Positions 12,103-40,478 are shown, numbered from the stretch's first letter. The stretch: DNA of 50,131 nucleotides from Bacteroidales bacterium UBA2287 (GCA_002345675.1 DDWL01000030.1:1-50131); one strand, 5' to 3'. A program made the numbers and translations. The notes: a model not told the origin generated them from the sequence alone.

Positions 12103-12786
12103 ATGAAATCGAAAAATCCGAAAGCCGACCTCGAGAAGAGCAAGTCTCTTTTCTTTCAAATTGGGTTAATTGCAGCCCTATCTCTATCGCTACTGGCGTT
12201 CGAATGGAAAAGCAATGGTAATCTTAACAATTTGAAGCCAAATGGAGATGACCCCGTAATTGAAGTAATTGAACTACCTACACCAATAATCGACAAGGAA
12301 CCTCCTAAACCGATTATTATTCCAAAAATCCCTGAGGTTATAAACATTGTACCCGACGAATATGAACCGAAGGATGAACCAATTATTTGGGAACCAACTG
12401 ATGAAGATTTACCAAGCATCCTTCCATATCGTGACCCTACCGAAGATGTGGAGGATCCCGACGAAGTGGTTCCTTTCGTTAATATCGAAGACAAACCTAC
12501 TTTTATGGGCAAACCTTACAACGAATTTTCGCGCTACATTGGTCGTAACTTAAAGTATCCCAAATTACCTGCACAAAACGGCATTCAAGGAATGGTAGTA
12601 ATTGAGTTTGTTGTCGACACCGACGGATCGGTTACCAAAGTTCGGGTTTTAAAGGGAGTTGACCCCCTGCTCGACCAAGAAGCAGTAAGAGTTGTAAGCT
12701 CATCGCCAAAGTGGGAGCCTGGCCGTCAGCGCAACAAGCCTGCAAGAGTTAGCTTTACCTTCCCAATCTATTTTCGCTTAAGCTAA
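12103..12786 (+). CDS. tonB: TonB family energy transducer
   Basis: N-terminal TM anchor, Pro-rich spacer, and a TonB-C domain nearly identical to that of the blaR1-like protein. Confidence 0.8.
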   Translation: MKSKNPKADLEKSKSLFFQIGLIAALSLSLLAFEWKSNGNLNNLKPNGDDPVIEVIELPTPIIDKEPPKPIIIPKIPEVINIVPDEYEPKDEPIIWEPTDEDLPSILPYRDPTEDVEDPDEVVPFVNIEDKPTFMGKPYNEFSRYIGRNLKYPKLPAQNGIQGMVVIEFVVDTDGSVTKVRVLKGVDPLLDQEAVRVVSSSPKWEPGRQRNKPARVSFTFPIYFRLS

Positions 12787-16708: not shown

Positions 16709-17407
16709 CTACTTCTTCTCATCAATAAATTTAAGTAGCGATTCGAAAACCAAGCGCCCATCGGTATTGCCCAACTCGTCGTCGGCTGCTCGTTCGGGGT
16801 GAGGCATCATGCCAAAAACATTCATGCCCTCGTTACAAACACCTGCAATATTTTCGATGGAACCATTTGGGTTAACTGTTTCGGAAACATTTCCACTTTC
16901 GTCGCAGTAGCGAAATAAAATTTGGTTGTTAATACGCATTTGCGCAAGGGTGTCCTTATCGGCGTAGTAACGGCCTTCGCCATGGGCAATTGGAATTTTT
17001 AGCGCCCTATTGCGGGGAAGGAATGCTGTTGGAGCTGCCGATTTGCTATCGGGTAAAATGTAAGTGTTTTTGCATTCAAATTTTTGAGAATTATTGTGAA
17101 GCAGGGCGCCGGGTAAAAGACCAGCCTCGCAAAGTATTTGAAAGCCATTGCAAACACCAAAAACATAGCCTCCATTATTGGCAAATTCAATTACCTTAAC
17201 CATAATTGGCGAAAAGCGAGCCAAGGCGCCAGAGCGAAGGTAGTCGCCATACGAAAAACCGCCGGGCAGAACCACAACATCAACCCCTTGCAAGTCGGAG
17301 TCCTTATGCCACAATTCAACAACTTCATGTTCCATTATATTTGTAAGAACATAAATCATGTCCTTATCGCAATTCGACCCTGGAAAAATAACTACACCAA
17401 ATTTCAT
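16709..17407 (-). CDS. purQ: Phosphoribosylformylglycinamidine synthase subunit PurQ
   Basis: Class-I glutamine amidotransferase. 'MKFGVVIFPGSNCDKD...VLPGGFSYGDYL' is typical of PurQ. Confidence 0.9.
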   Translation of the reverse strand: MKFGVVIFPGSNCDKDMIYVLTNIMEHEVVELWHKDSDLQGVDVVVLPGGFSYGDYLRSGALARFSPIMVKVIEFANNGGYVFGVCNGFQILCEAGLLPGALLHNNSQKFECKNTYILPDSKSAAPTAFLPRNRALKIPIAHGEGRYYADKDTLAQMRINNQILFRYCDESGNVSETVNPNGSIENIAGVCNEGMNVFGMMPHPERAADDELGNTDGRLVFESLLKFIDEKK

Positions 17408-17643
17408 AATTGTATCGCATTGAATGTTCGAACAAAGATATGTATAAATTACATTTCAGCAAAAAGTAACACAACGCCTGTTTGCAACAGACTTGATTTT
17501 CCAAGATGTATTTCAACGCGATATGAACACAAAAAACCGGGATTTTAAATACTGTTTGTTTTTCTAAAAATTAAGCTGAATAACACATTCGTTTTGTATT
17601 GTTGCTGAATTTTAAAGATATATTTTTGCAAAAAATTAACTGC

Positions 17644-18408
17644 ATGCTCTTTAGGCCATTTTTAATAGCTCTTACAGCCCTTCTTGTTGACATTTCAATT
17701 TTAAGCGCAACCGCCACAAATACCAATACCGAAACACACGACAAAATACCTGTTGCTACCGATTCGCTGAGCATTCACCTTTCGGCAAACCTGCAATCGC
17801 GGCACCTTTGGCGAGGATCGGTTACGTGCAGCGCATGGAATATTCAGCCAACAGCAACGGTAAGCAAACGAAACTTTTTGGTTGGCTTTTGGGGCGCTTA
17901 CACCGTTAACAACAGTTACTCCGAGGTAAACCTTTACGGTTCCTATACAATTGGACGATTTTCGGTGGCCGTTCTCGACTACTTTTGTCCCGATGAAACG
18001 CTGAAATTCAACCGCCTTTTCGACACAAACCAAAAAACGACCCAGCATACAGTTGATGCAACACTAACCTATAATGGCACAAAAAAGTTTCCCTTATCGT
18101 TAATGGTTTCAACCTTAGTTTGGGGCGATGATATTAATGCTACCACCGAAAAAAACTACTACTCAACATACATCGAAGCAGGCTATACTTGGGAAAGAAC
18201 ACAAACCCAAAAATTCGAATTTTTTGCGGGTATAACTCCTGTTGAAGGGTACTATGCCAACTCGCTTAACCTTGTAAACATGGGCTTTTCGGCCAGCCAA
18301 ACCATAAACGTAAGCAGCACTTTTAAACTACCCATATTTGGTAAAATAATTGCAAATCCACACACCCAAAATCTTTACTTCGTATTTGGGGCAACAATAG
18401 GTAGCTAA
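17644..18408 (+). CDS. Hypothetical secreted beta-rich protein
   Basis: Signal peptide 'MLFRPFLIALTALLVDISILSATA'. The start is taken at the internal ATG. Confidence 0.45.
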   Translation: MLFRPFLIALTALLVDISILSATATNTNTETHDKIPVATDSLSIHLSANLQSRHLWRGSVTCSAWNIQPTATVSKRNFLVGFWGAYTVNNSYSEVNLYGSYTIGRFSVAVLDYFCPDETLKFNRLFDTNQKTTQHTVDATLTYNGTKKFPLSLMVSTLVWGDDINATTEKNYYSTYIEAGYTWERTQTQKFEFFAGITPVEGYYANSLNLVNMGFSASQTINVSSTFKLPIFGKIIANPHTQNLYFVFGATIGS

Positions 18409-18640
18409 TTAGCTTGTAACAAAATGAAAGTTTTATTTGGGTATAGCTTTCTTAACAACGTTTCCTCTCTGCAATAATATAAGCATAAAATTCCTCCATA
18501 TACTTTGCAGATTAGCAAAGTATTTATATTTTTAGCAAGTTAAATCGATGCTAATTGGTTATAAAAATGCCTTTAATTGGGCAAAAACCGCTTAGTGTGG
18601 TTTAATAATTATATTACAATAGGCTTATTTCGAGAAGTTT

Positions 18641-19480
18641 ATGAACGTCACCAGTCAGGATTTACAATACTTCATTTTAACTTTAAAGAATTGTACAAAG
18701 TACGACCTAACGGAGTACTCCGACAAATCGTTAATGCGTAGGCTTCAAAAAATACTGGTCGATTTCAATCTCGATATTCCTGGTTTAGTTGCTGCTATAC
18801 GTAACGACGCCGACTTTTCGGAAAAAATTGTAAAAGAAATCACAGTTAACACTACCGAACTTTTTCGCGACCCACAGGTATGGCACATGCTTCGCTCTCG
18901 TATTTTACCTCGGTTTAAAAACAATAAAACAATTAATATTTGGCATGCAGGCTGCTCAACGGGACAGGAAGTTTACTCAATGATGATTCTCCTTAACGAA
19001 ATGGGCATGCTCGAAAACGCAAAGATTTTCGCATCCGACCTTAACTCCGATGTACTTGAACAGGCTAAGCAAGGCGTTTACAAGTATCGTTTCAATATTG
19101 GATATCTCGACAATTTCGACAAGGTAATTAAGCAAAACCCCTTAAATTACGAAGAATTTAACGACGTACCCTACGAAAAATATTTCGATATCGACAAGGT
19201 GAGAGATACCATAACCATAAAAAAACACCTTACCGAAAAACCTATTTTTCGCAAGCACGATTTGGTTAAGGACGGGAACCTGTTTTTTGCTAAGTTCGAC
19301 CTAATTCTTTGCCGAAACGTAATTATTTACTTTAACTACTCGTTGCAAAACAAAGTTTTCGAACTTTTTCATACAAACCTATACACCAAGGGAATTTTAT
19401 TGCTTGGCATGCACGAAACCATACTGGGTCCGTGGGCCGCTAAGTTCGAAAAAATGGGACAAGCATACATTAAAAAATAA
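18641..19480 (+). CDS. cheR: CheR-type protein-glutamate O-methyltransferase
   Basis: CheR_N helix bundle 'TVNTTELFRD', SAM loop 'IWHAGCSTGQEVYSM', and C-terminal 'LILCRNVIIYF'. Confidence 0.85.
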   Translation: MNVTSQDLQYFILTLKNCTKYDLTEYSDKSLMRRLQKILVDFNLDIPGLVAAIRNDADFSEKIVKEITVNTTELFRDPQVWHMLRSRILPRFKNNKTINIWHAGCSTGQEVYSMMILLNEMGMLENAKIFASDLNSDVLEQAKQGVYKYRFNIGYLDNFDKVIKQNPLNYEEFNDVPYEKYFDIDKVRDTITIKKHLTEKPIFRKHDLVKDGNLFFAKFDLILCRNVIIYFNYSLQNKVFELFHTNLYTKGILLLGMHETILGPWAAKFEKMGQAYIKK

Positions 19481-19501
19481 AATTGCACAAACTGTTAAAA
19501 C

Positions 19502-21886
19502 ATGAAGTTTTTTAGAAACTTAAATATCACTCAACGCATTCAAATTGTAGCACTTACTATGCTGCTTTTACTTTTCATTATTTCTGCGTTAGTTGTGTTC
19601 AGTTTCTCCCTAAAGCGAGTATACAGCACTACCGACAGGCAAATGGAAACTTACCTAAACCAGATTTCGGTAATTGTTAACATGGCCGAGCAAAAAACAA
19701 GCTCGGGGTTCGACTTTAACGACCACGCAATACTAAAGCCAATTTTCAGTTCGAGCGCCTTTCTTAAAACCGACTACCCATTTCTTGTAAGCACTTCGGG
19801 CGAATACCTTATTCACCTTTACAAGGAAAAACATAAAATACCAAAAGCAGAACTATCGCAAATAGTTTCGCACTCAAGCCAATTTGGCTATGTAAAATAC
19901 TTCGAAACTAAAAACGACAAAGAAGAAGAGTATCGATTGTACTTTAAAAAAATCGATACCTATAATGCAATAGTTGGCGTTCCTGTTTCGGTAAACGAAC
20001 TAACATCGAGTTTAAAAGCAAACAGGGTAGTTCTGCTAATATTTGTTCTGTTAGGTTCAGTAGCATCAGTAATTGCGCTATATTACGTATTAAGGCCAAT
20101 TCGAAATGCCATTAACAATGTAACATCAAGCATTGCCATGTTATCGCAAGGCAAAATTCCCGAGAAAGCAACCTTCGAGTTTAACGATGAGATTGGCGAC
20201 ATAACAAAACTACTCAACAACCTTATTGATGGAATGGAGCGCACCGCCGATTTTGCCATTGAAATTGGGAATAAAAATTTAGAAGCAACCTTCGAGCCGC
20301 TTGGTCCAAACGACAGGCTTGGCAATGCGCTAATTAACAATCGCGAAAGCCTTAAAAAAGCCTACGAAGAAGAACAACAACGCAAAGAGGAGGACGATAA
20401 GCGTAACTGGGTTACCATGGGTCTTGCAAAATTTGGGGAAATACTTCGTCAAAACAACAACAACCTGCAGCTGCTCTCCGACAATGTTCTTCAAAACCTT
20501 ATCGACTACCTAAACGCCAATCAAGGTGGCCTTTTTACCTATAACGACGACGATACAAGCAACATTTACCTCGAGTTGGTTTCGGCATTTGCCTATAATC
20601 GTAAAAAATTCAAACAAAAAACAATTCAACTTGGCGAAGGCTTGGTTGGCAACTGCGCCGTTGAGAAGAAAACCGTACACCTAAGAGAAGTTCCAACAAA
20701 CTACCTCGAAATCACTTCGGGATTAGGCGACACACCACCACGGTCAATTATTGTAGTGCCCTTAAAGCTTGAGGATAAAATTTTTGGAGTTATCGAAATA
20801 GCTTCGCTAACCGATTTTAGCGACCACGAAATCGACTTTGTCGAAAAAATTGGCGAAAGCATTGCGTCAACTCTTTCGGCTGTTCGCAATAACATCAAGA
20901 CAAATTACTTGCTTGAGCAATCGCAACAGCAACGGGAAGAAATGGCCGCTCAGGAAGAAGAGATGCGCCAAAACATGGAGGAAATGCTTGCCACTCAGGA
21001 AGAAATGTCGCGCAAGTCAATTGAAATGGAGGGTATGTCGTCGGCAATAAACGAAACGCTTCTATTCGCCGAGCTAACCGAGGACGGGTACTTCACTTCG
21101 TCGAACATGAAAACCATGCAGCTGCTTGAGTATAGCCGCACCGAACTTGAGGTTAAAAAAATCGAAGACATTATCCACCCCGACGATTTCGTATTTTTCC
21201 AAGCAGCATGGAACGAAGTTCAATCGGGCAGCCCATACAAAGGCACTCTTCGCTGGGTTACCCGGAACGACGAAAATCCTTATATTTTAACAAGTATTAC
21301 CCCAACCTATAGCGAAACTGGTGAACTATTTAAAATTTACATTATTGGCCAAGACGTAACCGAGTCGAAGCTGCTTGAGCTAAGGGCTCAAAAGCAAGCC
21401 GAAGAAATTGAGCAAAGTCTACTCGAAATTCAAGTTGAACAAGACATTTCGAAGAGCAAAGAAGAGGAAATGTCGCTTCTACTTCAGGCACTCGACCAAA
21501 CCTGCTTGGTTACCGAAATTAGTGTCGATGGTACTATAACCTATATCAACCATAAAAATGTTGATACACTTGGCGACCGCAAAGAGCTTATTGAAGGCCG
21601 AAAGCATGACGAGTTAGACATGATGGCGCGCAAAAACCCTGAGCAGTACAAAGCAATGTGGGATCAGCTACTTGTTGGTAAAAAAGTTACCCGCGAATTT
21701 TCGCTTTTGGTAAATAATAATAAGGTATGGGTTTCCGAAAACTACATACCTGTTCGTAATTCATTGGGCGAAATTTCGAAAATTATAAATATAGGAATCG
21801 ACATTTCATTGTTTAAGCAAAAGGAAGAGGAACTTTTAGCTCAGCTAAAAGGCGGCAAGGGAAACAAAAACGAAGAAAAGTCATAG
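19502..21886 (+). CDS. Membrane sensor: TM-periplasmic domain-TM-HAMP-GAF-coiled coil-PAS-PAS, with no output domain
   Basis: Two TM segments flank a ~150-aa extracytoplasmic domain. The GAF domain has 'LEITSGLGDTPPRSIIVVPL...GVIEIASL'. A Glu-rich heptad segment 'EEMAAQEEEMRQNMEEMLATQEEM' follows. Confidence 0.7.
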   Translation: MKFFRNLNITQRIQIVALTMLLLLFIISALVVFSFSLKRVYSTTDRQMETYLNQISVIVNMAEQKTSSGFDFNDHAILKPIFSSSAFLKTDYPFLVSTSGEYLIHLYKEKHKIPKAELSQIVSHSSQFGYVKYFETKNDKEEEYRLYFKKIDTYNAIVGVPVSVNELTSSLKANRVVLLIFVLLGSVASVIALYYVLRPIRNAINNVTSSIAMLSQGKIPEKATFEFNDEIGDITKLLNNLIDGMERTADFAIEIGNKNLEATFEPLGPNDRLGNALINNRESLKKAYEEEQQRKEEDDKRNWVTMGLAKFGEILRQNNNNLQLLSDNVLQNLIDYLNANQGGLFTYNDDDTSNIYLELVSAFAYNRKKFKQKTIQLGEGLVGNCAVEKKTVHLREVPTNYLEITSGLGDTPPRSIIVVPLKLEDKIFGVIEIASLTDFSDHEIDFVEKIGESIASTLSAVRNNIKTNYLLEQSQQQREEMAAQEEEMRQNMEEMLATQEEMSRKSIEMEGMSSAINETLLFAELTEDGYFTSSNMKTMQLLEYSRTELEVKKIEDIIHPDDFVFFQAAWNEVQSGSPYKGTLRWVTRNDENPYILTSITPTYSETGELFKIYIIGQDVTESKLLELRAQKQAEEIEQSLLEIQVEQDISKSKEEEMSLLLQALDQTCLVTEISVDGTITYINHKNVDTLGDRKELIEGRKHDELDMMARKNPEQYKAMWDQLLVGKKVTREFSLLVNNNKVWVSENYIPVRNSLGEISKIINIGIDISLFKQKEEELLAQLKGGKGNKNEEKS

Positions 21887-21888
21887 CT

Positions 21889-22725
21889 ATGATTATTCGT
21901 TACGACATAGGAATTGTTGAAACAAGGAATATTATTAAAACAATATTCGACACTTACGGTTACGACTTTAGGGACTATGCCCTTACGTCGTTTAAGCGTA
22001 GGCTCGAAGATGTTATTACCGAAAACGGGCTTAGGGATGCCGATGGTCTTATTTACAGGCTGCAAAACAACAAAGATTTTTTCGACAGCTTTTTAAAGGA
22101 AATTACACCCGAAACAACCGAAATGTTTCGCGACCCATCGCTTTGGCGAACTCTTCGCGACGATATACTTTTGGATATAGTAAAGAGCAGCACCAATAAG
22201 CCAAAAATATGGATTGCAAACTTCGATTCGGGCGAAGAGCTTTACTCGTTACATATTATACTAAAAGAGCTACACTTGCTCGAAAGCGTTCAGGTATACC
22301 TTTCGTACATGAGCGAAAGCGTTAAAAAGAAAGTTCTTTCGGGACGTATTGACCAAAAGCAAACAGAAGTTAACGAGGCAAACTACGAAAGAACAAATGG
22401 ACAGCACAAATTTGGGGAGTACTTTACCTCCTCGCCAATGGGAACTTTTTTCGACACATCGCTGCTAAGTGGAGTAACCTTTACCAAACAGGATACATTT
22501 TTCACCAATCCACCCGGAGGTATTAAGTTGTTGTTGTTCCGAAACCAAACCATATACTACAACCAATCGCATCAGGATAAGGCACTTGGCAACCTTCACG
22601 ACAGCCTTGTGGCTGGTGGTTTCCTCGCCTTGGGAACTCGCGAGACTTTGGATAATACAAACATTAACCATAAATTTACCGTTGTTAACGACCCTGACAA
22701 AATTTACAAGAAAAAAACAGGGTAA
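21889..22725 (+). CDS. CheR-like paralog with degenerate SAM-binding motifs
   Basis: The CheR_N-like 'TPETTEMFRD' is retained. The SAM loop is 'IWIANFDSGEELYSL' (GCSTG lost), and the C-terminal 'CRNV' is replaced by 'FRNQ'. Confidence 0.65.
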   Translation: MIIRYDIGIVETRNIIKTIFDTYGYDFRDYALTSFKRRLEDVITENGLRDADGLIYRLQNNKDFFDSFLKEITPETTEMFRDPSLWRTLRDDILLDIVKSSTNKPKIWIANFDSGEELYSLHIILKELHLLESVQVYLSYMSESVKKKVLSGRIDQKQTEVNEANYERTNGQHKFGEYFTSSPMGTFFDTSLLSGVTFTKQDTFFTNPPGGIKLLLFRNQTIYYNQSHQDKALGNLHDSLVAGGFLALGTRETLDNTNINHKFTVVNDPDKIYKKKTG

Positions 22726-22735
22726 CACAGTTATT

Positions 22736-23296
22736 ATGTATAAAGCAGTTATAATAGGCGGTTCGGCAGGCAGTTTCCAGGTAATTACCAGGATACTAAA
22801 CTCCTTGCCCCCAACTTTTCCTCTCCCAGTGCTACTTAGCCTTCATAGGCTTAAGCATGTGAGAAGCGGATTTGTTGAAGCGCTTTCCATAAAATCGTCT
22901 ATTCCAGTTATCGAACCATACGATAAGGATCAAATAAAACCAGGAAAAGCCTATCTTGCACCTGCAAATTATCACATGTTTATTGAACTGGGCAATCGAA
23001 TCGCCCTTTCGACCGAAGAACCAGTAAACCACTCGCGCCCATCAATCGACCTGTCGTTTTCAACAGCCGCACAGGTATACCGCGAAAAATTAATTGGAAT
23101 AATTCTTTCGGGAGCCAATAAGGACGGAGCATACGGCTTAAAGAAAATTAAAGACTTTGGAGGGTTAACCATTGTTCAGGACCCCGAGGAATGCCAAGTA
23201 AAAACCATGACCGAGGCCTCGCTCAAATTATCAAAAGTTGACCATGTGCTTAGCACTCAAGAAATTATTCGATTTTTACAAAACTTAAAACAATAA
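22736..23296 (+). CDS. cheB: Stand-alone CheB-type methylesterase (no receiver domain)
   Basis: 'VIIGGSAGSFQ', 'PANYHMFIE', 'RPSIDLSFS' and 'ILSGANKDGAYGL' match the CheB catalytic domain (Ser/His/Asp). Starts 10 nt after the cheR-like stop. Confidence 0.85.
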   Translation: MYKAVIIGGSAGSFQVITRILNSLPPTFPLPVLLSLHRLKHVRSGFVEALSIKSSIPVIEPYDKDQIKPGKAYLAPANYHMFIELGNRIALSTEEPVNHSRPSIDLSFSTAAQVYREKLIGIILSGANKDGAYGLKKIKDFGGLTIVQDPEECQVKTMTEASLKLSKVDHVLSTQEIIRFLQNLKQ

Positions 23297-23297
23297 A

Positions 23298-24104
23298 ATG
23301 GGAACAATGGGAATCCGTAAAGCAAAACATGCATTTATACATAGTGTCCTCTTAGCTCTACTCTTGCTAAGTGTTTGCGGTACCTATTTTTCTTTCCATA
23401 ACCTAGTGGCAACAACCCAAAATGCTTTTTACTTTTGGCCTATTGTTTTCACTATTGCCACCCTTATTATAGGTTTAGTTTTATACCTTAATGTTAGCAG
23501 AACTAACGACCAAAATCAAAAAATTGCCGAACAACTCGAAAGCCTAAAGAGAACTATTGAGCAAAGTAAAAATGGGCAAAATGGTAAAACAAAAGAGGAG
23601 CATAAAGCACAGCAACAAACAAATACAATAGAAGACGCCAGCAAGTTGCTACCCAGTTCAAATTTTGAAAACATAGATATTTTTGCTGAACAGCTACTTA
23701 AAAATATATCAAAATCGTTCGAAATAGTTCAAGGTACATACTTTGCCAAAAACGAAAAAACTAACGAGTTTAAATTTGTAGCTGGCTACGCTTTTTACTC
23801 CGAATCACAACCACAAAGTTTTGTTGAAGGGGAAACGCTACCCGGTCAGGTTGCTAAAAATCGCGAGACCTTACTATTAGAGCAAATTCCCGATGGCTAC
23901 ATTACAATACTGTCGGGTCTTGGGAAAGGAACGCCTCACTATTTGCTACTTGTACCCATAGTGAACGAGCAAGGAAGTTGTGATGGCGTTTTTGAGGTTG
24001 CCTCATTTAAGCCAATTCCTTCGAGTACCGTTCAAATTCTTACTGCTTTAGGAAAACTGATAGACCCGCTTTTACACAAAAACGCAAACTCTTCGCAAGA
24101 ATAA
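23298..24104 (+). CDS. Membrane-anchored GAF-domain protein
   Basis: Two TM helices, a coiled coil, and a GAF domain paralogous to those of the flanking sensors ('YITILSGLGKGTPHYLLLVPI...GVFEVASF'). Confidence 0.55.
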   Translation: MGTMGIRKAKHAFIHSVLLALLLLSVCGTYFSFHNLVATTQNAFYFWPIVFTIATLIIGLVLYLNVSRTNDQNQKIAEQLESLKRTIEQSKNGQNGKTKEEHKAQQQTNTIEDASKLLPSSNFENIDIFAEQLLKNISKSFEIVQGTYFAKNEKTNEFKFVAGYAFYSESQPQSFVEGETLPGQVAKNRETLLLEQIPDGYITILSGLGKGTPHYLLLVPIVNEQGSCDGVFEVASFKPIPSSTVQILTALGKLIDPLLHKNANSSQE

Positions 24105-24108
24105 AGAT

Positions 24109-26721
24109 ATGGTTTCACACAATAAAATATCGCCCGAAAGTTTCACAAGAGCCCTTAACCAAAGGGTATTCTTTGCCACGGTTATTGGGTTCTTGCTAAC
24201 AATAACAGCATGGCTTATTGTCTTTTCGAAAAGCGATTTACAGTTCTCCCTTTCGGGTTTAATTAGCATTCACAGCCAAAACCCAATTCTTTGGCTAATC
24301 GACCTAATTCCTCTAATTTTTGGATACTCTACCTGGTTTCAGGCAAAGCGCCAGCTCGATAAGGTAATGTTTCTCGAAGATGAAATTCGACAGCGCGACG
24401 AAAACATTAGTAAAAACGCCCTTTTTGCAAAAAAAATTGGTGAAGGTCAGTACAATGCAGCCTTTCAAATTAGCGACGAAGACGACATTCTCGGAAAGTC
24501 GCTGCTTGTAATGCGCGACAACCTCCTAAAGAACTACGATAAAGAATCGGAAGAGAGCTGGATTGCAAAGGGGAAAGATGAAGTTTCGTACATTCTTCGC
24601 CTGCATAATAATATCGACGAGCTATCATACGAAGTGCTTGTTAAGCTTATTAAGTACATTAACGTTGTACAAGGGGCACTCTACATTTTCGATGAAGATA
24701 AACAAACCCTTCGCAATCTTGCAACATACGCCTTTAACCGAAAAAAACATGTATATCAGGAGTTTAAGGTAGGTCAAGGACTTATTGGGCAATGTGCGTA
24801 CGAAAAGGACATTATATACCGCACCGAAATTCCCAACGATTATATTACAATAACCTCTGGCGTTTTAGGCGATAAGAAACCAAAATCGATACTACTTGTT
24901 CCTCTTATTACCGACGAGAAACTGCAAGGAATTATTGAGTTAACCTCGTTCGACGATTCAATTCCCGATCTCACCATTCGCTTCCTTCGCGAAATGGGCG
25001 AAATTTTAGCACGTACCATTTTCAACTTAAGAATAAACATTAAAACCGAAAAACTCCTTCAAGAGGCTCAGCAAATGGCCCAAGAACTTAAGGAGAACGA
25101 AGAAGAGTTACGCCAGAATGCCGAGGAAATGCGTGCCACCCACGAAGAACTCGAAAAGTCGAACGCCAAACTCGAAATGAAGATTAAGGAAGTTGAAAAT
25201 GCGCAAAAACGCCTTCACTCGCTACTCGAAAACGCATCCGAAATCATTTCAATATACAGTAGTAGCATTAAACTAATGTATATAAGCCCATCGGTAACCA
25301 AAATTTTGGGCTATACGCCCAACGAAATGATGAGCGGAAAGGATATTGATCGCCTTACCCGAAAGGGCGAACAAGAACTTAACGACATGTTTAAAAAGTT
25401 GCTCGACTCACCACGAATTCCCATCACCATCGAGTACACTTTTATGAAGAAGGATGGCGAAAAAATATTCCTCGAAGTTACAGGCCGAAACCTACTCGAC
25501 GACAGCGCCATAAATGGAATAATTCTTAATTCTCGCGATATAACCGAGCGTAAACGCGCCGAAAAGGAAGAGCGTATGCGAAGCAAAATGCAATCGCTCT
25601 CGGAGAATTCGCCCGATATGATTATTCGTTTAAACACAGCTGGGCAGTTCTTTTATGCCAACCCAATGGTTGAGCCTTACCTTGGCATACCTCCCAAGGA
25701 TCTTATAAACCAAACGCTTAACTCGGTTAACATTAACGAATCGCTTGCAAACTTCTTTAAAGAATCAATTAAGGGTATAAAAACTCAAAAAGAGCAGGTA
25801 GAAATTGATCTTAGCTTCGAAGCTATTTGTGGCAATGTTATTATGCACATTGTTGCCATACCCGAGTTTAACGAAAACGAACTCGAAACAATTCTTTTTG
25901 TTGGGCACGACATTTCGGAAGCAAAACGTATTGAGCAAGAGGTACAGGATAAGAACCGAAAAATTACAGAGAGTATAAACTATGCCCAACGTATTCAAAC
26001 CTCAATTCTACCTAATAATCGAATAATTCGCCAATACCTACCAAAATCGTTTACGTACTATAAACCCCGCGATGTGGTTAGCGGCGACTTTCCTTGGTTC
26101 TTTTTAAAGGATGATTACGTTTACATAGCTGTGGTCGACTGTACAGGGCACGGAGTTCCAGGAGCACTACTCTCGTTTATTGGTTACTTTACGCTAAACA
26201 ATGTAGTTGACCACGACTCCACTTACACCGCTGGTAAAATATTAGATTTACTTCACTACGGAGTTCGAAAAACCCTAAAACAAGACAGACCCGACGCCGA
26301 CGCACGCGATGGAATGGACATAGCGTTATGCAAAATTAACCTTAAACGCAAAGAGCTTCAGTATGCCGGAGCACATAGGCCATTGTATATGCTTCGAAAC
26401 GGGGAACTATCTGAATTTAAAGGAAATAGAAAGGCAATTGGGGGAATTCCTCATCCAAAAAAGGAAGAGGACGATTTTACTAATTACCCTATCGACATAA
26501 AACCTGGCGACAAAGTATTCTTCTTTTCCGATGGGATGCCCGACCAAGTTGGCGGTCCCGAAAACAAGAAATATGGCCCAGCAAGAATACGTGAAATAAT
26601 TTTATCGAACCCAAACTTCACAATGCCACAATATAACGATATATTTGCAAAAGACTTTGAAGAGTATATGGGTGACAACAAGCAAGTTGATGACGTTTTA
26701 ATAATTGGAATAGAGTTTTAA
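24109..26721 (+). CDS. Sensor PP2C phosphatase (SiaA/RsbU-like): TM2-GAF-coiled coil-PAS-PAS-SpoIIE
   Basis: PP2C motifs 'VVSGDFPWF', 'VVDCTGHGVPGALLSF', 'DGMDIAL' and 'FFFSDGMPDQ'. The GAF domain has 'YITITSGVLGDKKPKSILLVPL'. The Glu-rich segment is 'EEELRQNAEEMRATHEEL'. Confidence 0.8.
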   Translation: MVSHNKISPESFTRALNQRVFFATVIGFLLTITAWLIVFSKSDLQFSLSGLISIHSQNPILWLIDLIPLIFGYSTWFQAKRQLDKVMFLEDEIRQRDENISKNALFAKKIGEGQYNAAFQISDEDDILGKSLLVMRDNLLKNYDKESEESWIAKGKDEVSYILRLHNNIDELSYEVLVKLIKYINVVQGALYIFDEDKQTLRNLATYAFNRKKHVYQEFKVGQGLIGQCAYEKDIIYRTEIPNDYITITSGVLGDKKPKSILLVPLITDEKLQGIIELTSFDDSIPDLTIRFLREMGEILARTIFNLRINIKTEKLLQEAQQMAQELKENEEELRQNAEEMRATHEELEKSNAKLEMKIKEVENAQKRLHSLLENASEIISIYSSSIKLMYISPSVTKILGYTPNEMMSGKDIDRLTRKGEQELNDMFKKLLDSPRIPITIEYTFMKKDGEKIFLEVTGRNLLDDSAINGIILNSRDITERKRAEKEERMRSKMQSLSENSPDMIIRLNTAGQFFYANPMVEPYLGIPPKDLINQTLNSVNINESLANFFKESIKGIKTQKEQVEIDLSFEAICGNVIMHIVAIPEFNENELETILFVGHDISEAKRIEQEVQDKNRKITESINYAQRIQTSILPNNRIIRQYLPKSFTYYKPRDVVSGDFPWFFLKDDYVYIAVVDCTGHGVPGALLSFIGYFTLNNVVDHDSTYTAGKILDLLHYGVRKTLKQDRPDADARDGMDIALCKINLKRKELQYAGAHRPLYMLRNGELSEFKGNRKAIGGIPHPKKEEDDFTNYPIDIKPGDKVFFFSDGMPDQVGGPENKKYGPARIREIILSNPNFTMPQYNDIFAKDFEEYMGDNKQVDDVLIIGIEF

Positions 26722-26758
26722 ATTGTAATATACGGTAAATTTCCTAATTTTACAGGCT

Positions 26759-27334
26759 ATGGATAAAAAGAATGTTAAAGGGTTTCTCGAGTTCGTGTAC
26801 GACTTTTACAAGTCCATGAAAGCTCACGAAATCACCCTCGTTTACGAAGGTGAAATTACCCACCAAATTACAAAGGCCTTCACCTCCCTTACCGAATCGA
26901 ACATGGCCAAAGAGGAGGAGTCCAACACCGTTCAGAAAAAAGTATTCCATGTTATGGTGGAGTGCCTTCAAAACATTAGCAAGCATGCCGATAGTTTTGG
27001 CTCCGACGATTTTCTATTTGCTGGTCGTGGAATTTTTATGGTTAGCAAAGGCGAAATCGAATACCACGTTACAACTGGTAACGTAATTGAGAATACAAAA
27101 ATTGAAGAACTCTCGAAAATACTCGACAACATTAACTTGCTCGACAAAGAGGGTTTGAAAACACTTTACAAAACCCAAATGCGCGAAGGAAGACTCTCCG
27201 AAAAGGGAGGCGCAGGCTTAGGTTTTATCGACATTGCACGTAAAACGGGTCGAAAACTTGAGTACCATTTCCTTCCAATCGACGAAGAAAACCATTTCTT
27301 CATTTTAACATCAACAATATCCAGAAACGAGTAA
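26759..27334 (+). CDS. GHKL-type Ser/Thr protein kinase-like protein (SiaB/RsbW-like)
   Basis: N-box-like 'ECLQNISKHA' and G-box 'GGAGLGFIDIARK'. ~190 aa. Located immediately upstream of a DUF1987-like gene. Confidence 0.55.
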   Translation: MDKKNVKGFLEFVYDFYKSMKAHEITLVYEGEITHQITKAFTSLTESNMAKEEESNTVQKKVFHVMVECLQNISKHADSFGSDDFLFAGRGIFMVSKGEIEYHVTTGNVIENTKIEELSKILDNINLLDKEGLKTLYKTQMREGRLSEKGGAGLGFIDIARKTGRKLEYHFLPIDEENHFFILTSTISRNE

Positions 27335-27345
27335 AGAATAGAGCT

Positions 27346-27729
27346 ATGGAAACCATAAAGATCCTGGGTACCGACGACACCCCAACTGTAATATTGGATG
27401 CTGAGAACGAAATTTTTGAGATTTCCGGTCGCTCATTGCCCGAAGATGTTACAGCCTTTTACGATCCAATTCTTAATTGGCTCGACGAGTATGCAGGGAG
27501 CCCAAACGCAAAAACAGCATTTACATTCAAACTAGTATACTTTAATACAGCTAGTTCCAAGTTACTTCTCGATATTTTAATGAAACTTGAGCAAATGCAC
27601 GAGGACGGAAAAGATGTGCTTGTCCGTTGGTTTTACCCCGAAGATGATGAGGATATGCAGGAAGCTGGGGAAGAGTACGCCGACATTGTTGATGTTCCCT
27701 TTGAGCAAATAAGCTACACCCTTAGTTAG
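27346..27729 (+). CDS. DUF1987/SiaC-like small regulatory (phospho)protein
   Basis: 127 aa. 'FEISGRSLPEDVTAFYDPILNWL' and 'YFNTASS' resemble the SiaC family (recalled from memory, not searched). Confidence 0.6.
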   Translation: METIKILGTDDTPTVILDAENEIFEISGRSLPEDVTAFYDPILNWLDEYAGSPNAKTAFTFKLVYFNTASSKLLLDILMKLEQMHEDGKDVLVRWFYPEDDEDMQEAGEEYADIVDVPFEQISYTLS

Positions 27730-27762
27730 TCACAAAAAATGCACGGTCGATACTGTTAAGCT

Positions 27763-30700
27763 ATGAGTGAAGAAATTCTCAAAGCTTTAATGCAACTCTT
27801 TGCAATTATTGCAAAGCAGGACGAGGGAGTTGAATCCAACGAGCGCAACTACGTTGTGACCTTTCTTAAGCAACAGATTAACGATGAGGCCGTTGAAGAT
27901 TACATAAAGCTTTTCGACCAGCACGCAGGACTTCTCGACGAGAAGGAAGATGAAGATGAGGCAGAAGAGGGAAAACCAAAAAAGGTAAAACTCACATCGG
28001 TTAAGGACTCCGTAAAAATCCTTGGAATTTGTAAAAAGATTAACAAAACTCTTACCCAGCGACAAAAAGTAGTTGTACTGGTTAGGCTTTTCGAACTTGT
28101 TAATGCCGACCGCAAGTTCACAGACCAACGCATGGCCATTATTAATACCGTGTCGGAGGTTTTTAAGTTAACAAAGGAAGAATTTTCCGATATTGAGAAC
28201 TTTGTAATTGTTGAAACCGCTGAAGAGTTAGACTACTCGAGTATTCTTACTATTCACGCAAAACCCGAGCGTGGCGAACACTGCAAGCACATTCATACCG
28301 AAGCGCTAAGCGGCTACATTTATATTCTACAAATTAAAAGTGTCGACCTCTACTTTCTTCGCTATACTGGAACAGAGGATATTTTCCTTAATGGACTACC
28401 CATTAACAACAAGCGCATTTACCTTTACGCCAGCGGGAGTTCCATTAAGCTATCGAAAGGAAAACCCGTTTACTATACCGACGTTGTTGCGCATTACCTT
28501 GCCGACTCCACCGCCACTCGAATATCGTACAGCGTTGAAAAGCTAGGCTTTAAGTTTAAAACTGGGGGCATTGGCCTTCGCGACATCTCGTTTAAAGAAG
28601 AGCACGGAAAACTCATTGGCATTATGGGTGCCAGCGGAGCTGGAAAAACCACTCTACTAAACGTACTGGCTGGCATTGAAAATCCCACCTCGGGTCGCGT
28701 ACTAATTAACGGCATCGATCTTCATAATGAAAAGGATAAACTCGAAGGAGTAATTGGGGTTATACCTCAGGACGATCTTTTAATTGAAGAACTTACTGTT
28801 TTCCAGAACCTATACTACAACGCAAAGCTTTGCTTTAAGGATAAAAGCGAAGAGGAGCTTACCGAACTGGTCGATAAAACCCTTTTCAACTTAGGCCTAC
28901 TCGAAAGAAAAAACCTGAAGGTTGGCTCACCTATGAACAAAATGATTTCGGGTGGTCAACGAAAGCGTTTAAATATTGCCCTTGAGTTAATTCGCGAGCC
29001 TTCAATTCTTTTTGTCGACGAGCCTACATCGGGCCTTTCGTCGCGCGACTCGGAGAACGTAATGGACCTTTTGCGCGAGCTTACCCTAAAGGGTAAACTT
29101 ATTTTTGTAGTAATTCACCAGCCATCGTCGGAAATATATAAAATGTTCGACAATATGGCAATTCTCGACACTGGGGGATACCTTATATACTACGGAAACC
29201 CAGTTGAGGCTGTGATGTATTTTAAGCGGATTGACATGCAAATTAACAGCGACGTTGGTGAATGCCCAACCTGCGGAAATGTTAATCCCGAGCTTATATT
29301 CAACATTATAGAAGCAAAGGTTGTCGACGAATTTGGTCGTTACACACCAATACGTAAGGTATCACCGCCAAAGTGGGAAGACCATTTTCGTGAGAATATA
29401 AAACTTCGCGAAGTTGAAGACGAATCAGTTGCACCTCCCCAATCGCTCAACATTCCATCGAAACTAAAGCAATTTGTTATATATACAACCCGCGATTTTC
29501 TGTCGAAAATTAGCAACACCCAGTATATTGTACTTAACCTACTCGAAACACCAATTCTAGCTTTTGTTTTAGCCTTTGTAATACGCTATATCGCCGATCC
29601 AAACTCCAGTGTATATATTTTCAGCGAAAATGAGAATATACCCATTTACATTTTCATGTCGCTTATTGTAGCACTATTTATAGGACTTACAGTTAGTGCC
29701 GAAGAAATTTTTAGGGATAGAAAAATACTTAAACGCGAAGCGTTTCTTAACCTAAGCCGCACCTCGTACCTCTCGAGTAAAATTATTATATTAGTTACCC
29801 TTTCGGCAATTCAGTCAATAGCTTTCGTACTTATAGCTAACAGTATTCTCGAAATTAGGGGCATGTATCTCGAGTACTGGCTAATAATATTCTCGACTTC
29901 AGTTTTTGCAAATCTTCTTGGATTAAACATATCGGCAACATTTAACTCGGCAGTTACCATATATATTGTTATTCCTCTGCTAATGATTCCAATGATGGTA
30001 CTTTCGGGAGCCATGTTTAGCTTCGACAAGCTAAATAGAGCAGTAGGTAGCTTTAACAAAGTTCCGCTTATTGCCGAATTTATGGTTACTAAATGGGGAT
30101 ACGAAGGGTTGGTGGTTCATCAATTTAAAGACAATGCCTTCCATAGAACTTTTTACGAGATTGAAAAGGAAGAGCGAAATGCTAGCTACAAAACTATTTA
30201 CTACATTCTCGAACTCGAAAAGAGGTTAAATTCATCAATTGAACTTCTTGAACAAAAAAGCGACAAAAAGGCCAAAGATAAACTAAACGACAACCTTGCA
30301 GTAATAAGGAAAGCTCTCTTTACCGAAACCAATTTTATGGCTCCTGGCATACCGTACAGTTTTTTTAATAACTTAAACGAAATTGACTTTAACGAAAAAG
30401 TAGCCTATGCTACAATAGATTATTTAGACGATTTAAAGAGCCATTACCAAAAAATATATCTATCGGCTAATCAAAAAACCGATAGAATTAAAAACCACTT
30501 AATTAGCAAAGACCCACAGGCATACGAAGCAAGGCGAAGAGCATACCACAACGAGAGCATTGCCGATTTGGCAATGAAAACTATTGAAAAGAATAAAATT
30601 CTCCAGTATAAAGACGAACTTGTTCAACAGTACGACCCTATTTATCGCGACCCATTACCTGGGCACAAACTCGACTTTAGGTCTCACTTTCTTGCTCCCC

Positions 30701-30858
30701 GCAAGCACTTTTTGGGATTTTACTTCGACACATTTTGGTTTAATCTTTGCTTTATTTGGTTCATGACCCTCGTTCTTTACATTACGCTTTATTTTGAGTC
30801 GATAAAGTGGGTTCTTGAACTTTTTGCAAAAATTCGACTGCCCAAATTTCGTAAGTAA
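27763..30858 (+). CDS. ABCG/ABC-2-type transporter (fused ATPase and permease) with a ~270-aa N-terminal cytoplasmic extension
   Basis: Walker A 'GIMGASGAGKTT', signature 'SGGQRKRL', Walker B 'ILFVDEPTSGL', and a six-TM ABC-2 domain. The N-terminus has two helical repeats and a beta-rich segment 'EDIFLNGLPINNKRIYLYASGSSIKL' that may be FHA-like. Confidence 0.8.
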   Translation: MSEEILKALMQLFAIIAKQDEGVESNERNYVVTFLKQQINDEAVEDYIKLFDQHAGLLDEKEDEDEAEEGKPKKVKLTSVKDSVKILGICKKINKTLTQRQKVVVLVRLFELVNADRKFTDQRMAIINTVSEVFKLTKEEFSDIENFVIVETAEELDYSSILTIHAKPERGEHCKHIHTEALSGYIYILQIKSVDLYFLRYTGTEDIFLNGLPINNKRIYLYASGSSIKLSKGKPVYYTDVVAHYLADSTATRISYSVEKLGFKFKTGGIGLRDISFKEEHGKLIGIMGASGAGKTTLLNVLAGIENPTSGRVLINGIDLHNEKDKLEGVIGVIPQDDLLIEELTVFQNLYYNAKLCFKDKSEEELTELVDKTLFNLGLLERKNLKVGSPMNKMISGGQRKRLNIALELIREPSILFVDEPTSGLSSRDSENVMDLLRELTLKGKLIFVVIHQPSSEIYKMFDNMAILDTGGYLIYYGNPVEAVMYFKRIDMQINSDVGECPTCGNVNPELIFNIIEAKVVDEFGRYTPIRKVSPPKWEDHFRENIKLREVEDESVAPPQSLNIPSKLKQFVIYTTRDFLSKISNTQYIVLNLLETPILAFVLAFVIRYIADPNSSVYIFSENENIPIYIFMSLIVALFIGLTVSAEEIFRDRKILKREAFLNLSRTSYLSSKIIILVTLSAIQSIAFVLIANSILEIRGMYLEYWLIIFSTSVFANLLGLNISATFNSAVTIYIVIPLLMIPMMVLSGAMFSFDKLNRAVGSFNKVPLIAEFMVTKWGYEGLVVHQFKDNAFHRTFYEIEKEERNASYKTIYYILELEKRLNSSIELLEQKSDKKAKDKLNDNLAVIRKALFTETNFMAPGIPYSFFNNLNEIDFNEKVAYATIDYLDDLKSHYQKIYLSANQKTDRIKNHLISKDPQAYEARRRAYHNESIADLAMKTIEKNKILQYKDELVQQYDPIYRDPLPGHKLDFRSHFLAPRKHFLGFYFDTFWFNLCFIWFMTLVLYITLYFESIKWVLELFAKIRLPKFRK

Positions 30859-30894
30859 AAAAATTGTTTTATTTTTACTTTTCAGTAAAAACCA

Positions 30895-31833
30895 TTGAAA
30901 CGGAAAAACCACATCGTTATGATTCGATACATAATTTTAATTTGTATAGGTTCGATTGCTCTAAGTTCCTGTAACAGGTGCAGTTCAGAAAAAACTGATT
31001 CTTGGAACGATATTCCACAGGAAGTTATTGATGGCAATAATTTTGAAGACATTGTTGTTCCCGTTGACGTTATAAATCAAATGGTAAACGTTTCGTCGCC
31101 CGTTGAAACGGCTGCGCTAATAAAAGGCCTAAAAATTCCCTTTAATCGCGACTACCTTGCCGATACAAAATTCACTAATAGCTACAGCACCAGCTTTAAA
31201 AAGGCTTTAGGGCTTGGGGTTTTTGGTGCCGATATGGGTTACCTAAACATGTACGAGAAACCTACTCTGGTTATCGACTACCTCTCGAGTGTTAACTCCT
31301 TAGCCGATGGCCTTCAGGTTGGCCAATTTTTCGACTTTAAAACCCTAAAGCGAATTGCAACAAACAAGGAGAATTTAGACTCGTTAATGGTTATTTCGCA
31401 GCAAAGTTTTAACAAAATCGATAACTATTTAAAGCAAACTAACAGGGGTAGTTTAAGCGTTGTAATTATTGCTGGGGTTTGGTTAGAAGGCTTTTATCTT
31501 TCAACCCGTGTTTATCAGGACTCAAGACACTCACGCATTCGCGAAACTATTGGCGAACAGAAAATTGTAATGAGCAATTTAATGGTTCTTCTCGAAATAT
31601 TTAAAAAAGATTCAAATATTGCGGCTCTTATTAAAGACTTTAATGAAATAAAAGTTTTGTTTAATGATGTAGTGATTACTGTTGTAATGGGCGAAGAACC
31701 TATACCCATTGTTAAAAATGGCGTTGTTACGTTTATTCAAAGCGACAAGCAAACAGTTGAAATGTCGGACGAAACTCTTGGCGCAATTATTGAGAAGGTA
31801 CAGAGTATACGTAAAAAAATTGTAGAAGGCTAA
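30895..31833 (+). CDS. Hypothetical lipoprotein
   Basis: Lipobox 'ALSSC'. Last-but-one gene of the operon. Confidence 0.45.
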   Translation: MKRKNHIVMIRYIILICIGSIALSSCNRCSSEKTDSWNDIPQEVIDGNNFEDIVVPVDVINQMVNVSSPVETAALIKGLKIPFNRDYLADTKFTNSYSTSFKKALGLGVFGADMGYLNMYEKPTLVIDYLSSVNSLADGLQVGQFFDFKTLKRIATNKENLDSLMVISQQSFNKIDNYLKQTNRGSLSVVIIAGVWLEGFYLSTRVYQDSRHSRIRETIGEQKIVMSNLMVLLEIFKKDSNIAALIKDFNEIKVLFNDVVITVVMGEEPIPIVKNGVVTFIQSDKQTVEMSDETLGAIIEKVQSIRKKIVEG

Positions 31834-31852
31834 CCGAGAAACTCATTGAATT

Positions 31853-32299
31853 ATGAAAAATATTGCACTTTTCTTTTTATTAACAGCAGGCATTTTTGGT
31901 TACTCCACTGTAGCCTACAGCCAATCGGAAGATGAACTTGTTGAGATTTGCGGAATGATTGCTGGAGAAGCTACCTTTTTGAAGGACTTTAAAATTCGGC
32001 TCGACTCGGGTGATCCTCCCCCAATTCAACGTTTCTCGGTAATTCTTAAAAAAGGCATTAAGTACCGTTTCTCGGTTTGTAACTCAAAAGATCAGGATGG
32101 AAAAGTTGTACTTCAACTTTTAGATAATAACCGATTATTAGCCACCACACATATAGTTGCAACTGGCAAAGACTGGCCTTTTATTGACTATGTTTGCACA
32201 AAAACTGGAGCATATCACCTTTTCTTCAGCTTTAAAGATGGTAAATCGGGCTTAGCTGTTGGTCTACTATCGCTTGTTGAAGCAGAAGGCGGAAGTTAA
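31853..32299 (+). CDS. Hypothetical secreted protein
   Basis: Signal peptide 'MKNIALFFLLTAGIFGYSTVAYS'. Last gene before the terminator. Confidence 0.45.
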   Translation: MKNIALFFLLTAGIFGYSTVAYSQSEDELVEICGMIAGEATFLKDFKIRLDSGDPPPIQRFSVILKKGIKYRFSVCNSKDQDGKVVLQLLDNNRLLATTHIVATGKDWPFIDYVCTKTGAYHLFFSFKDGKSGLAVGLLSLVEAEGGS

Positions 32300-32320: not shown

Positions 32321-32350
32321 AAAGGGGAGCAAAGTGCTCCCCCTTTTTAT
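32321..32350. terminator. Bidirectional rho-independent terminator
   Basis: AAAGGGGAGCA-AAG-TGCTCCCCCTTTTT, between convergent genes. Confidence 0.65.
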
Positions 32351-40034: not shown

Positions 40035-40065
40035 AGTATTTGTTTTAAATTTTGATATGTGGCAA

Positions 40066-40430: not shown

Positions 40431-40445
40431 TGCTTATTTGTTTTG

Positions 40446-40478
40446 GCTAAAAAAGGCAGAGGATTTTGCCCCCTGCCT
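40446..40478 (-). terminator. Terminator downstream of the arsP-like gene
   Basis: On the - strand: AAAAGGCAGGGGGCAAAATCCTCTGCCTTTTTT. Confidence 0.55.

Follow-up and report, generated by a model that had tools for sequence, protein, structure and literature searches.

A SiaABC-type phospho-switch in an operon with chemotaxis-type methylation enzymes and an ABC exporter cassette in Bacteroidales: candidate CheR/CheB substrates away from CheA and CheW

What do the chemotaxis adaptation enzymes CheR and CheB act upon when they are encoded apart from the rest of the chemotaxis apparatus? To our knowledge, the only established substrates of these enzymes are chemoreceptors that work with CheA and CheW; many non-flagellated Bacteroidota encode CheR and CheB, and we know of no explanation of their role there. 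The question is raised by an eleven-gene operon (g1 to g11, positions 18641-32299) in a stretch of DNA of 50,131 nucleotides from Bacteroidales bacterium UBA2287 (GCA_002345675.1, DDWL01000030.1:1-50131), hereafter termed the window. We propose a composite model with three parts: a SiaABC-type phospho-switch, a CheR/CheB methylation module and an adjoining exporter as output; we regard the chances that this model is right as about even. One reading within it is held more tentatively, and somewhat below even confidence: that CheR and CheB act on sensors other than methyl-accepting chemotaxis proteins (MCPs), namely a PP2C phosphatase and its co-sensor, and so adapt a partner switch without CheA, CheW or a receptor array, this switch in turn gating an ABC exporter with an FHA-fold domain.

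Organization of the operon

An initial annotation, made by a model from the sequence, had described eleven + strand genes with gaps of 1-37 bp, closed by a terminator. A fresh call of the open reading frames (ORFs) recovers every one of its coordinates, with all eleven ORFs on the + strand and intergenic gaps, in order from g1 to g11, of 21, 2, 10, 1, 4, 37, 11, 33, 36 and 19 bp; a hairpin is likewise found at the operon end. Profile searches of each protein (Pfam, NCBIfam) uphold the gene and domain assignments:

18641..19480, + strand: g1, CheR methyltransferase (Pfam CheR, 1.2e-39, and CheR_N)
19502..21886, + strand: g2, accessory membrane sensor without an output domain (Pfam GAF_2, 7.7e-15; two PAS)
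21889..22725, + strand: g3, degenerate CheR paralogue (Pfam CheR, 1.1e-17, and CheR_N)
22736..23296, + strand: g4, receiver-less CheB methylesterase/deamidase catalytic domain (Pfam CheB_methylest, 1.2e-49)
23298..24104, + strand: g5, small membrane-hairpin protein with a GAF domain (GAF_2, 24.9 bits; cut-off 28.6)
24109..26721, + strand: g6, central sensor phosphatase (Pfam GAF, two PAS, SpoIIE 1.4e-17)
26759..27334, + strand: g7, SiaB-family Ser/Thr protein kinase (Pfam DUF6272, 3e-43)
27346..27729, + strand: g8, SiaC-family (DUF1987) phosphoprotein (Pfam SiaC, 3e-42, 143.5 bits; cut-off 24.5)
27763..30858, + strand: g9, ABCG-type half-transporter (ABC_tran 3.3e-32, ABC2_membrane 1.1e-20, TerB)
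30916..31833, + strand: g10, predicted lipoprotein of no family (lipobox Cys C19, invariant)
31853..32299, + strand: g11, small secreted protein of no family (signal-peptide-like N-terminus)

Pfam scans of all non-overlapping window ORFs of at least 110 aa detect no MCPsignal, CheA, CheW, Response_reg or GGDEF domain, in agreement with the earlier statement that the window lacks an MCP signalling domain, CheA, CheW, CheY and the diguanylate cyclase SiaD. Since only CheR and CheB are present and MCPsignal, CheA, CheW and CheY were not found in the window, we do not class this operon as a chemosensory pathway.

The SiaABC-type switch

The SiaABC-like set of PP2C phosphatase, kinase and DUF1987 protein proves firmer than was first claimed, with matches to the crystallised SiaA PP2C domain, SiaB and SiaC of Pseudomonas aeruginosa. 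The g6 protein displays, in order, a membrane hairpin, a HAMP-like linker, a GAF domain, a coil of Glu-Glu heptads (the EE-heptad coil, see below), two PAS domains and a SiaA-type PP2C domain. Its residues 598-870 match the SiaA PP2C domain (6K4E) with an E-value of 1.1e-38, and residues 605-868 match the NCBIfam SiaA model (9.2e-50) over its PP2C part, below the full-length equivalog cut-off. The g7 protein scores 173.8 bits on the NCBIfam model SiaB_fam_kinase (NF038262; cut-off 85) and aligns over residues 21-183 with P. aeruginosa SiaB (6KKO_A, E 6.2e-13), while g8 matches SiaC (6KKO_C/6K4F, E 1.3e-15), with an NCBIfam score that is again below the equivalog cut-off. As g6 and g8 score under these equivalog cut-offs, we treat them as members of the SiaA and SiaC families and not as functional orthologues of SiaA and SiaC.

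The segment LVYFNTASSK of g8 aligns with LLYLNTSSIK of SiaC, and the Thr is residue 68 in both proteins:

27547-27549, + strand: predicted phospho-acceptor Thr68 of g8 (alignment to SiaC T68, codon checked)

The surrounding segment, FKLVYFNTASSK, is at least 95% conserved and essentially invariant, T68 included, across 63 orthologues. The P. aeruginosa kinase SiaB adds a phosphate to SiaC at T68, a site mapped experimentally within LLYLNTSSIK, and SiaA removes it (PMC7647112). Homology thus identifies g6, g7 and g8 as a switch of the SiaA/SiaB/SiaC type with T68 of g8 as its predicted phospho-site, at which g7 would add the phosphate and the PP2C domain of g6 would remove it; with these two opposed activities, the phospho-state of g8 would report the activity of the sensor.

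CheR, its degenerate paralogue and CheB

The g1 protein aligns end to end with CheR of Bacillus subtilis (5FTW, E 2.4e-31), and its S-adenosylmethionine (SAM) motif IWHAGCSTGQEVYS and a further motif, DLILCRNVIIYF, are at least 95% conserved (n=67 sequences); it is predicted to be catalytically competent. The g3 protein, 31% identical to g1, has ANFDSG in place of the AGCSTG of the g1 SAM motif. This loss, which accords with its initial description as a degenerate paralogue, is seen in 78 of 78 orthologues, and g3 is probably non-catalytic; its N-terminal helical domain and the other motifs are retained. The Cytophagales loci described below have one CheR with an intact SAM motif, about 40% identical to g1 and g3 alike; a single intact CheR equidistant from both indicates that g1 and g3 arose by a lineage-specific duplication. 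On these alignments, it is the copy adjoining cheB that appears to have lost the cofactor motif after the duplication.

The g4 protein matches CheB of Thermotoga maritima (3SFT, E 3.5e-28), and the residues corresponding to its catalytic Ser-His-Asp triad (S10, H37 and D130) are all invariant; by homology, it should be an active CheB that dispenses with the receiver domain. That domain was noted as missing from the start, and both Pfam and the lengths of homologues agree: the best 120 homologues have 171-200 aa, nearly all of them 184-190 aa. Starting at ATG 22736, g4 encodes 186 aa with a 10-bp gap to g3, and the longest ORF (from TTG 22586) would overlap g3 by 140 nt.

In a Rosetta-stone search, g1 CheR was compared exhaustively with 1.84 billion representatives, giving 32,429 matches, of which the best 150 were inspected. 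These are stand-alone CheRs and nine longer proteins, seven of which are fusions with CheB, four in the order CheR-CheB (P0439, P0470, P0491 and P0493) and three in the order CheB-CheR (P0471, P0481 and P0496); the other two are extended, one at the C-terminus and the other at the N-terminus. Fusions in either order suggest that CheR and receiver-less CheB form an evolutionarily mobile two-enzyme unit.

Candidate methyl-accepting segments in the sensors

Two sensors of the operon contain an EE-heptad coil:

20936..21007, + strand: EE-heptad coil of g2 (EEMAAQEEEMRQNMEEMLATQEEM), candidate methyl-accepting segment (heptad pattern)
25081..25152, + strand: EE-heptad coil of g6 (QELKENEEELRQNAEEMRATHEEL), candidate methyl-accepting segment (heptad pattern and conservation)

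The heptads read NEEELRQ / NAEEMRA / THEELEK in g6 and REEMAAQ / EEEMRQN / MEEMLAT / QEEMSRK in g2, with a Glu-Glu spacing of exactly seven residues in both. When three or more consecutive [EQ][EQ][LMIV] heptads are taken as the coil pattern and scored on the ORFs of 80 loci, it is found in 77 of 79 g6 orthologues, in 40 of 44 g2 orthologues and in one of 2108 other ORFs; a translation of the window in all six frames contains it at two places only, inside g2 and g6. Among 73 g6-type sequences, no variation is seen at E332, E339, E340 and E347; position 333 carries E in 58 sequences and Q in 13, and position 325 has Q in 33 and E in 29. The core LRQNAEEM(R/Q)AT(H/Q)EEL is kept between Bacteroidales and Cytophagales, the proteins being 46-49% identical overall, and few non-catalytic segments of g6 are as strongly conserved as the coil.

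CheR sites in chemoreceptors are heptad-spaced Glu/Gln pairs in the coiled coil that follows the HAMP domain, some of them encoded as Gln, and their classical consensus is Glu-Glu-x-x-Ala-Ser/Thr. The segments AEEMRAT of g6 and MEEMLAT of g2 fit this consensus as EExxA(T), and the coil is placed after a unit of transmembrane (TM) segments and HAMP, as in MCPs. The Glu-Glu pairs of the g6 coil after HAMP-GAF, and those of the paralogous g2 coil where it is present, would thus be the substrate of CheR and CheB.

Several observations weigh against this assignment. The coil agrees with only part of the extended MCP methylation consensus. The coil segments taken alone give no MCPsignal match in Pfam even at E-values up to 10, only generic coiled-coil noise, so that their likeness to MCP helices is at the level of the motif only, and their reading as detectable MCP homologues was rejected. 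Moreover, the sole pattern-bearing ORF outside g2 and g6 among the 2108 encodes a PAS-PAS histidine kinase (L045, 2-1840, + strand), which has a like coil (TNEELSATNEELSATNEELYHQREEL) with NEEL repeats just before its HisKA domain. As this is an ordinary PAS histidine kinase, the coil could be a generic signalling helix; the kinase could be a further CheR/CheB substrate or a sign that such coils are generic helices. Finally, none of the best 150 relatives of g1 is a fusion of CheR to an EE coil, PAS or GAF domain, so there is no Rosetta-stone support for a link between CheR and the coil.

The missing homology to MCP signalling domains and the coil of the histidine kinase would both fit an alternative in which CheR and CheB have another target in the operon (g5, g7, g8 or an acidic loop in the TerB domain of g9), or in which CheB is mainly a Gln deamidase, the EE heptads being ordinary helix. 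The loop of g9 in question (aa 60-76), a low-confidence part of its model, might offer such a target. Yet the only MCP-like Glu-Glu heptad arrays of the window are those of g6 and g2, the former strongly conserved, and the coil-bearing g2 gene is placed between the two CheR genes. The g5 protein is a poor candidate: it lacks an EE coil, its orthologues have no conserved Glu or Gln pairs, and it evolves fast (about 27-46% identity across loci). We consider another target in the operon distinctly improbable.

The coil of g2 and g6 belongs to a longer shared region, since the two proteins are 38% identical over 270 aa of linker, GAF domain and following coil (E 3.5e-49). The g2 protein has two TM segments around an external segment of about 140 aa, a weak HAMP domain (18 bits, under the Pfam cut-off), the GAF domain, the coil and two PAS domains. 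The GAF domain of g5, sub-threshold in Pfam, matches those of g6 (E 1e-17) and g2 (E 7e-13). The motif by which the initial annotation had recognised three paralogous GAF domains is present in g2, g5 and g6, and these significant cross-matches agree with it.

Conservation of the operon across genomes

A survey of neighbourhood conservation, as the initial annotation had proposed, was made with one genome per species. The CheB subfamily is found in the genomes of at least 582 species, and the best 80 loci were compared. The full order g1-g11 is present in 29 loci and the same order without g2 in 20, making 49 complete loci; the other 31 are cut by contig ends, and each is a contiguous piece of one of these two orders. 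The gene order is thus held in 80 of 80 related loci, and it extends to Cytophagales: L081 (Fulvivirga maritima) and L084 (a metagenomic contig with L081-like proteins), both taken as Cytophagales, have the same order with a single CheR. The PP2C protein of L084 itself carries dCache and HAMP domains, and no CheA, CheW or CheY was called in the Pfam-annotated ±10-kb flanks of L081 and L084. Identity to the window proteins across loci is 76-98% for g7, 72-93% for g8 and 76-91% for CheB. Complete genomes with the operon include those of Tenuifilum thalassicum, Tenuifilaceae bacterium CYCD and Fulvivirga maritima (CP089980.1). Recurrence of the order in all 80 related loci indicates that the association of these genes is more than chance. 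The conserved core consists of CheR, CheB, the small GAF protein, the sensor-PP2C, the SiaB-like and SiaC-like proteins, the transporter, g10 and g11; g2, present in 29 of the 49 complete loci and absent from part of the lineages, is an optional extra sensor.

This conservation bears on a further alternative, namely that the targets of CheR and CheB are conventional chemoreceptors whose genes lie elsewhere in the genome, and that their placement in the operon reflects co-regulation only. Bacteroidota are generally non-flagellated and have few classical chemotaxis genes, which is one point against it. Others are the strict order of CheR, CheB, GAF protein, PP2C, SiaB and SiaC across at least 80 species of two classes, the lack in CheB of the receiver domain that couples it to CheA, and the 50-kb window without other Che, MCP or receiver genes. 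It has a precedent in Proteobacteria, where chemosensory clusters with a partner-switch output are reported to possess a full set of CheA, CheW and MCP (PMC7184735, PMC9855816). On balance, we find service to conventional receptors very unlikely.

Some of the loci surveyed carry questionable labels. Locus L067 (JBKHIH010000047.1), labelled Thiohalospira sp., a gammaproteobacterium, has a complete operon of the Bacteroidales type with 67-87% identity and is probably mis-binned, and several loci labelled 'uncultured Rikenellaceae' look Tenuifilaceae-like.

The transporter cassette as a candidate output

The g9 protein displays, in order, a TerB domain (aa ~1-150), an FHA-fold domain (aa ~158-235, nt 28234-28467), an ABC ATPase and an ABC-2 membrane domain. 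Fusion of the ATPase to the N-terminal side of the membrane domain is the ABC-2/ABCG-type arrangement, and the protein scores 1.1e-75 on TIGR00955, under the cut-off. The transporter with an N-terminal extension, lipoprotein and secreted protein of the initial annotation are all recognisable, and the extension resolves into TerB and the FHA-fold domain. The latter was recognised by a fold search of the predicted structure, in which the best structural matches of its beta-sandwich are all FHA domains; a PDB sequence search with the g9 N-terminus gave no match. The model of g10 shows a helical bundle with a small sheet, with generic structural matches only. The g10 gene always follows the transporter, and g11 always follows g10; the L064 locus has a second, divergent g10 copy (748-1641, + strand, 27% identity) about 4 kb upstream of the operon.

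Several lines of evidence point to this cassette as the output of the switch. Wherever one of the 80 loci reaches far enough, g9 directly follows g8, as it also does in the two Cytophagales loci. There is no terminator between g8 and g9, and a hairpin scan of the operon interior finds only weak 5-6-bp stems, their count not above that of shuffled sequence. No STAS, sigma-factor, HTH (helix-turn-helix) or GGDEF output domain was found in the operon by Pfam, nor any alternative output domain in the window. In P. aeruginosa, SiaC acts on the product of the adjacent gene, SiaD, and the authors of the SiaC-SiaD structure proposed that DUF1987 proteins generally modulate adjacent gene products (PMC8457831).

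The alternative here is that the switch is real and its output lies elsewhere, for example in an unlinked diguanylate cyclase, a regulator of a sigma factor or a metabolic enzyme, with the ABC cassette as a mere neighbour or co-transcribed cargo. Two sets of findings lean towards it and weaken the case for the exporter. The first is that the TerB-FHA-ABC-g10-g11 cassette is present without adjoining Che or Sia genes in three further loci (L082, L083 and L085), in each of which a gene of the LPG_synthase_TM family directly precedes it (L083, 9136-9951; L085, 8868-9953). Gene calls in L082 are fragmented and include no gene of the size of g10 at the cassette; L083 has a SiaC-family gene on the other strand, about 10 kb from the cassette. 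The second concerns the FHA-fold domain. Canonical FHA domains bind phosphothreonine (pThr) through an Arg, a Ser-x-x-His motif and an Asn. The g9 segment has no Pfam FHA match at E-values up to 10, and in its YTGTEDIFLNG, aligned by eye, the structural NG is kept and E205/D206 stand at the expected phosphate-contacting Asn. As there is no Pfam FHA match and the pThr-contacting residues are not evident, we call the domain FHA-fold with an uncertain ligand, and a canonical pThr-binding role for g9 was down-weighted. Set against the unbroken g8-g9 adjacency and the SiaC-SiaD precedent, an output elsewhere seems to us rather unlikely.

Existence of the cassette on its own indicates that the signalling module and the exporter cassette are separable units that have been joined in many lineages, and for the same reason the transporter is a plausible and not a secure output. 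The window itself has an orthologue of the LPG_synthase_TM gene (flippase-like, UPF0104) at 12958-14046 (+ strand), 52% identical and 13.7 kb upstream of g9. This linkage hints that the exporter cassette is tied functionally to membrane-lipid handling, and also that the signalling module was inserted between the LPG_synthase_TM gene and the cassette in the lineage of the window.

A model for the operon

We infer both sensor methylation and transporter control from these associations. In the composite model, a membrane-anchored switch of the SiaABC type, encoded immediately before an ABC exporter cassette, would have gained a methylation (adaptation) module of the kind that serves chemoreceptors. 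Methylation of the coil by g1, and its demethylation or deamidation by g4, would reset the PAS/PP2C output in the manner of a chemoreceptor, such that adaptation would be gained without CheA or CheW. As this CheB has no receiver domain, we propose that feedback operates via conformation-dependent availability of the substrate; g3, with its N-terminal domain kept, may serve as a non-catalytic adaptor. One phospho-form of g8 would bind the TerB and FHA-fold N-terminus of g9, as SiaC binds SiaD, and this binding would gate the export of a possibly lipid-related substrate together with g10 and g11. Independent support for the proposed mechanism comes from the conserved MCP-like Glu-Glu heptads, near-exclusive to g2 and g6 orthologues, and from the FHA-fold regulatory domain of g9.

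Comparison with known systems

The closest counterpart of the switch is the SiaABCD system of P. aeruginosa (PMC7647112, PMC8457831), with which the operon shares a membrane-anchored PP2C phosphatase, a kinase, a DUF1987 protein with T68 and the gene order phosphatase, kinase, phosphoprotein, target. It differs in three respects: the operon and window have no SiaD or GGDEF domain, the next gene in all loci that reach it being the TerB-FHA-ABC transporter; g6 has a GAF domain, the EE coil and two PAS domains instead of the sensor region of SiaA; and CheR, pseudo-CheR, CheB and extra GAF proteins have been added. With three of the four defining parts present and the diguanylate cyclase absent, we place it in the SiaABC family of switches and do not call it a SiaABCD system.

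With MCP-CheA-CheW pathways the operon shares a CheR with an N-terminal helical domain and intact SAM domain, a CheB with the Ser-His-Asp triad, and a candidate substrate with heptad Glu-Glu pairs after TM-HAMP that includes an EExxAT site. In contrast to them, the operon and window have no MCP signalling domain, CheA, CheW or CheY, and the presumed substrates, whose methylation is likewise presumptive, are GAF/PAS proteins, one of them itself a PP2C phosphatase. A receiver-less CheB is known in the chemosensory F3 class (PMC9239204). Signalling to partner switches is reported for Che1 of Shewanella oneidensis and for ancestral F7 clusters with STAS and PP2C genes (PMC7184735, PMC9855816); they resemble the present operon in the genetic linkage of Che components to a phospho-switch of PP2C, kinase and antagonist type. 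Those systems keep the full MCP-CheA-CheW array and reach the switch via a phosphorylated receiver domain, whereas in the present operon CheR and CheB seem to be connected straight to the phosphatase of the switch.

For the proposed output, a comparison is offered by Rv1747 of Mycobacterium tuberculosis, an ABC exporter with N-terminal FHA domains that is regulated by Ser/Thr phosphorylation. The g9 protein, in contrast, has one FHA-fold domain, behind TerB, lacks evident canonical pThr-binding residues, and its proposed regulator is a SiaC-type protein and not a Hanks-type kinase.

The initial annotation had not recognised the wiring as a described system, and this stands within the full-text literature searched, in which no description of CheR/CheB wired with a SiaABC-like switch and an ABC exporter was found; in the co-zorb paper cheB is mentioned for E. 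coli only. Every part is familiar, and it is the combination and the implied substrate class that are new. The operon supplies a candidate substrate with specific residues, a phospho-switch with a known site and a candidate effector. If the more tentative reading of the model holds, CheR and CheB would for the first time have a defined role and a class of substrates independent of CheA, and both would be widespread in Bacteroidota. Methylation-based adaptation would then extend beyond chemotaxis arrays, the SiaABC paradigm beyond the control of cyclic di-GMP, and g9 would join Rv1747 as the second FHA-bearing ABC exporter to be controlled by Ser/Thr phosphorylation. Even with a different methylation target, the operon would represent a well-defined new signalling cassette of environmental Bacteroidales and Cytophagales, mostly known from metagenome-assembled genomes.

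Boundaries and neighbouring genes

The operon is flanked by two hairpins:

18500..18523, + strand: terminator-like hairpin 5' of g1 (9-bp stem, then a T-run)
32321..32345, no strand assigned: intrinsic-terminator-like bidirectional hairpin at the operon 3' end (G+C-rich, T-runs on both strands)

The former is likely the 5' boundary of the transcription unit. The G+C content is about 0.40 along the whole window, and the closest protein homologues carry the names Tenuifilaceae or Bacteroidales; together with a type IX secretion sorting domain encoded upstream of the operon, this places the organism within Bacteroidales, near Tenuifilaceae.

Just upstream of the operon, with the terminator-like hairpin between it and g1, lies an ORF of 269 aa and no family (17599-18408, + strand), which has the same position in 24 related loci and is weakly conserved (28-56% identity). 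On the opposite strand to it, a purQ-like amidotransferase gene (16709-17407) is syntenic in 48 loci. Further upstream, a 748-aa protein (14282-16528, + strand) has DUF5689, two PLD-like (phospholipase D/nuclease) domains and a C-terminal sorting domain of type IX secretion, and is therefore a PLD-family enzyme that is either secreted or held at the surface; its gene does not accompany the operon in related loci. Two clusters resemble arsenic/metalloid-resistance loci: one (3579-5187, + strand) encodes an ArsR-type HTH protein, a low-molecular-weight phosphatase (ArsC-like) and a SAM methyltransferase, and the other (38973-44222, - strand) an SBF/ACR3-type transporter, an ArsP-type permease, a DsbD-like membrane protein, two small unknown ORFs and another ArsR-type HTH protein. 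Finally, a BlaR1/BlaI-like pair (9558-11883, - strand) consists of a 656-aa peptidase M56 fused to a C-terminal TonB_C domain, beside the gene for a Penicillinase_R-family repressor, and a separate TonB_C protein is encoded at 12103-12786.

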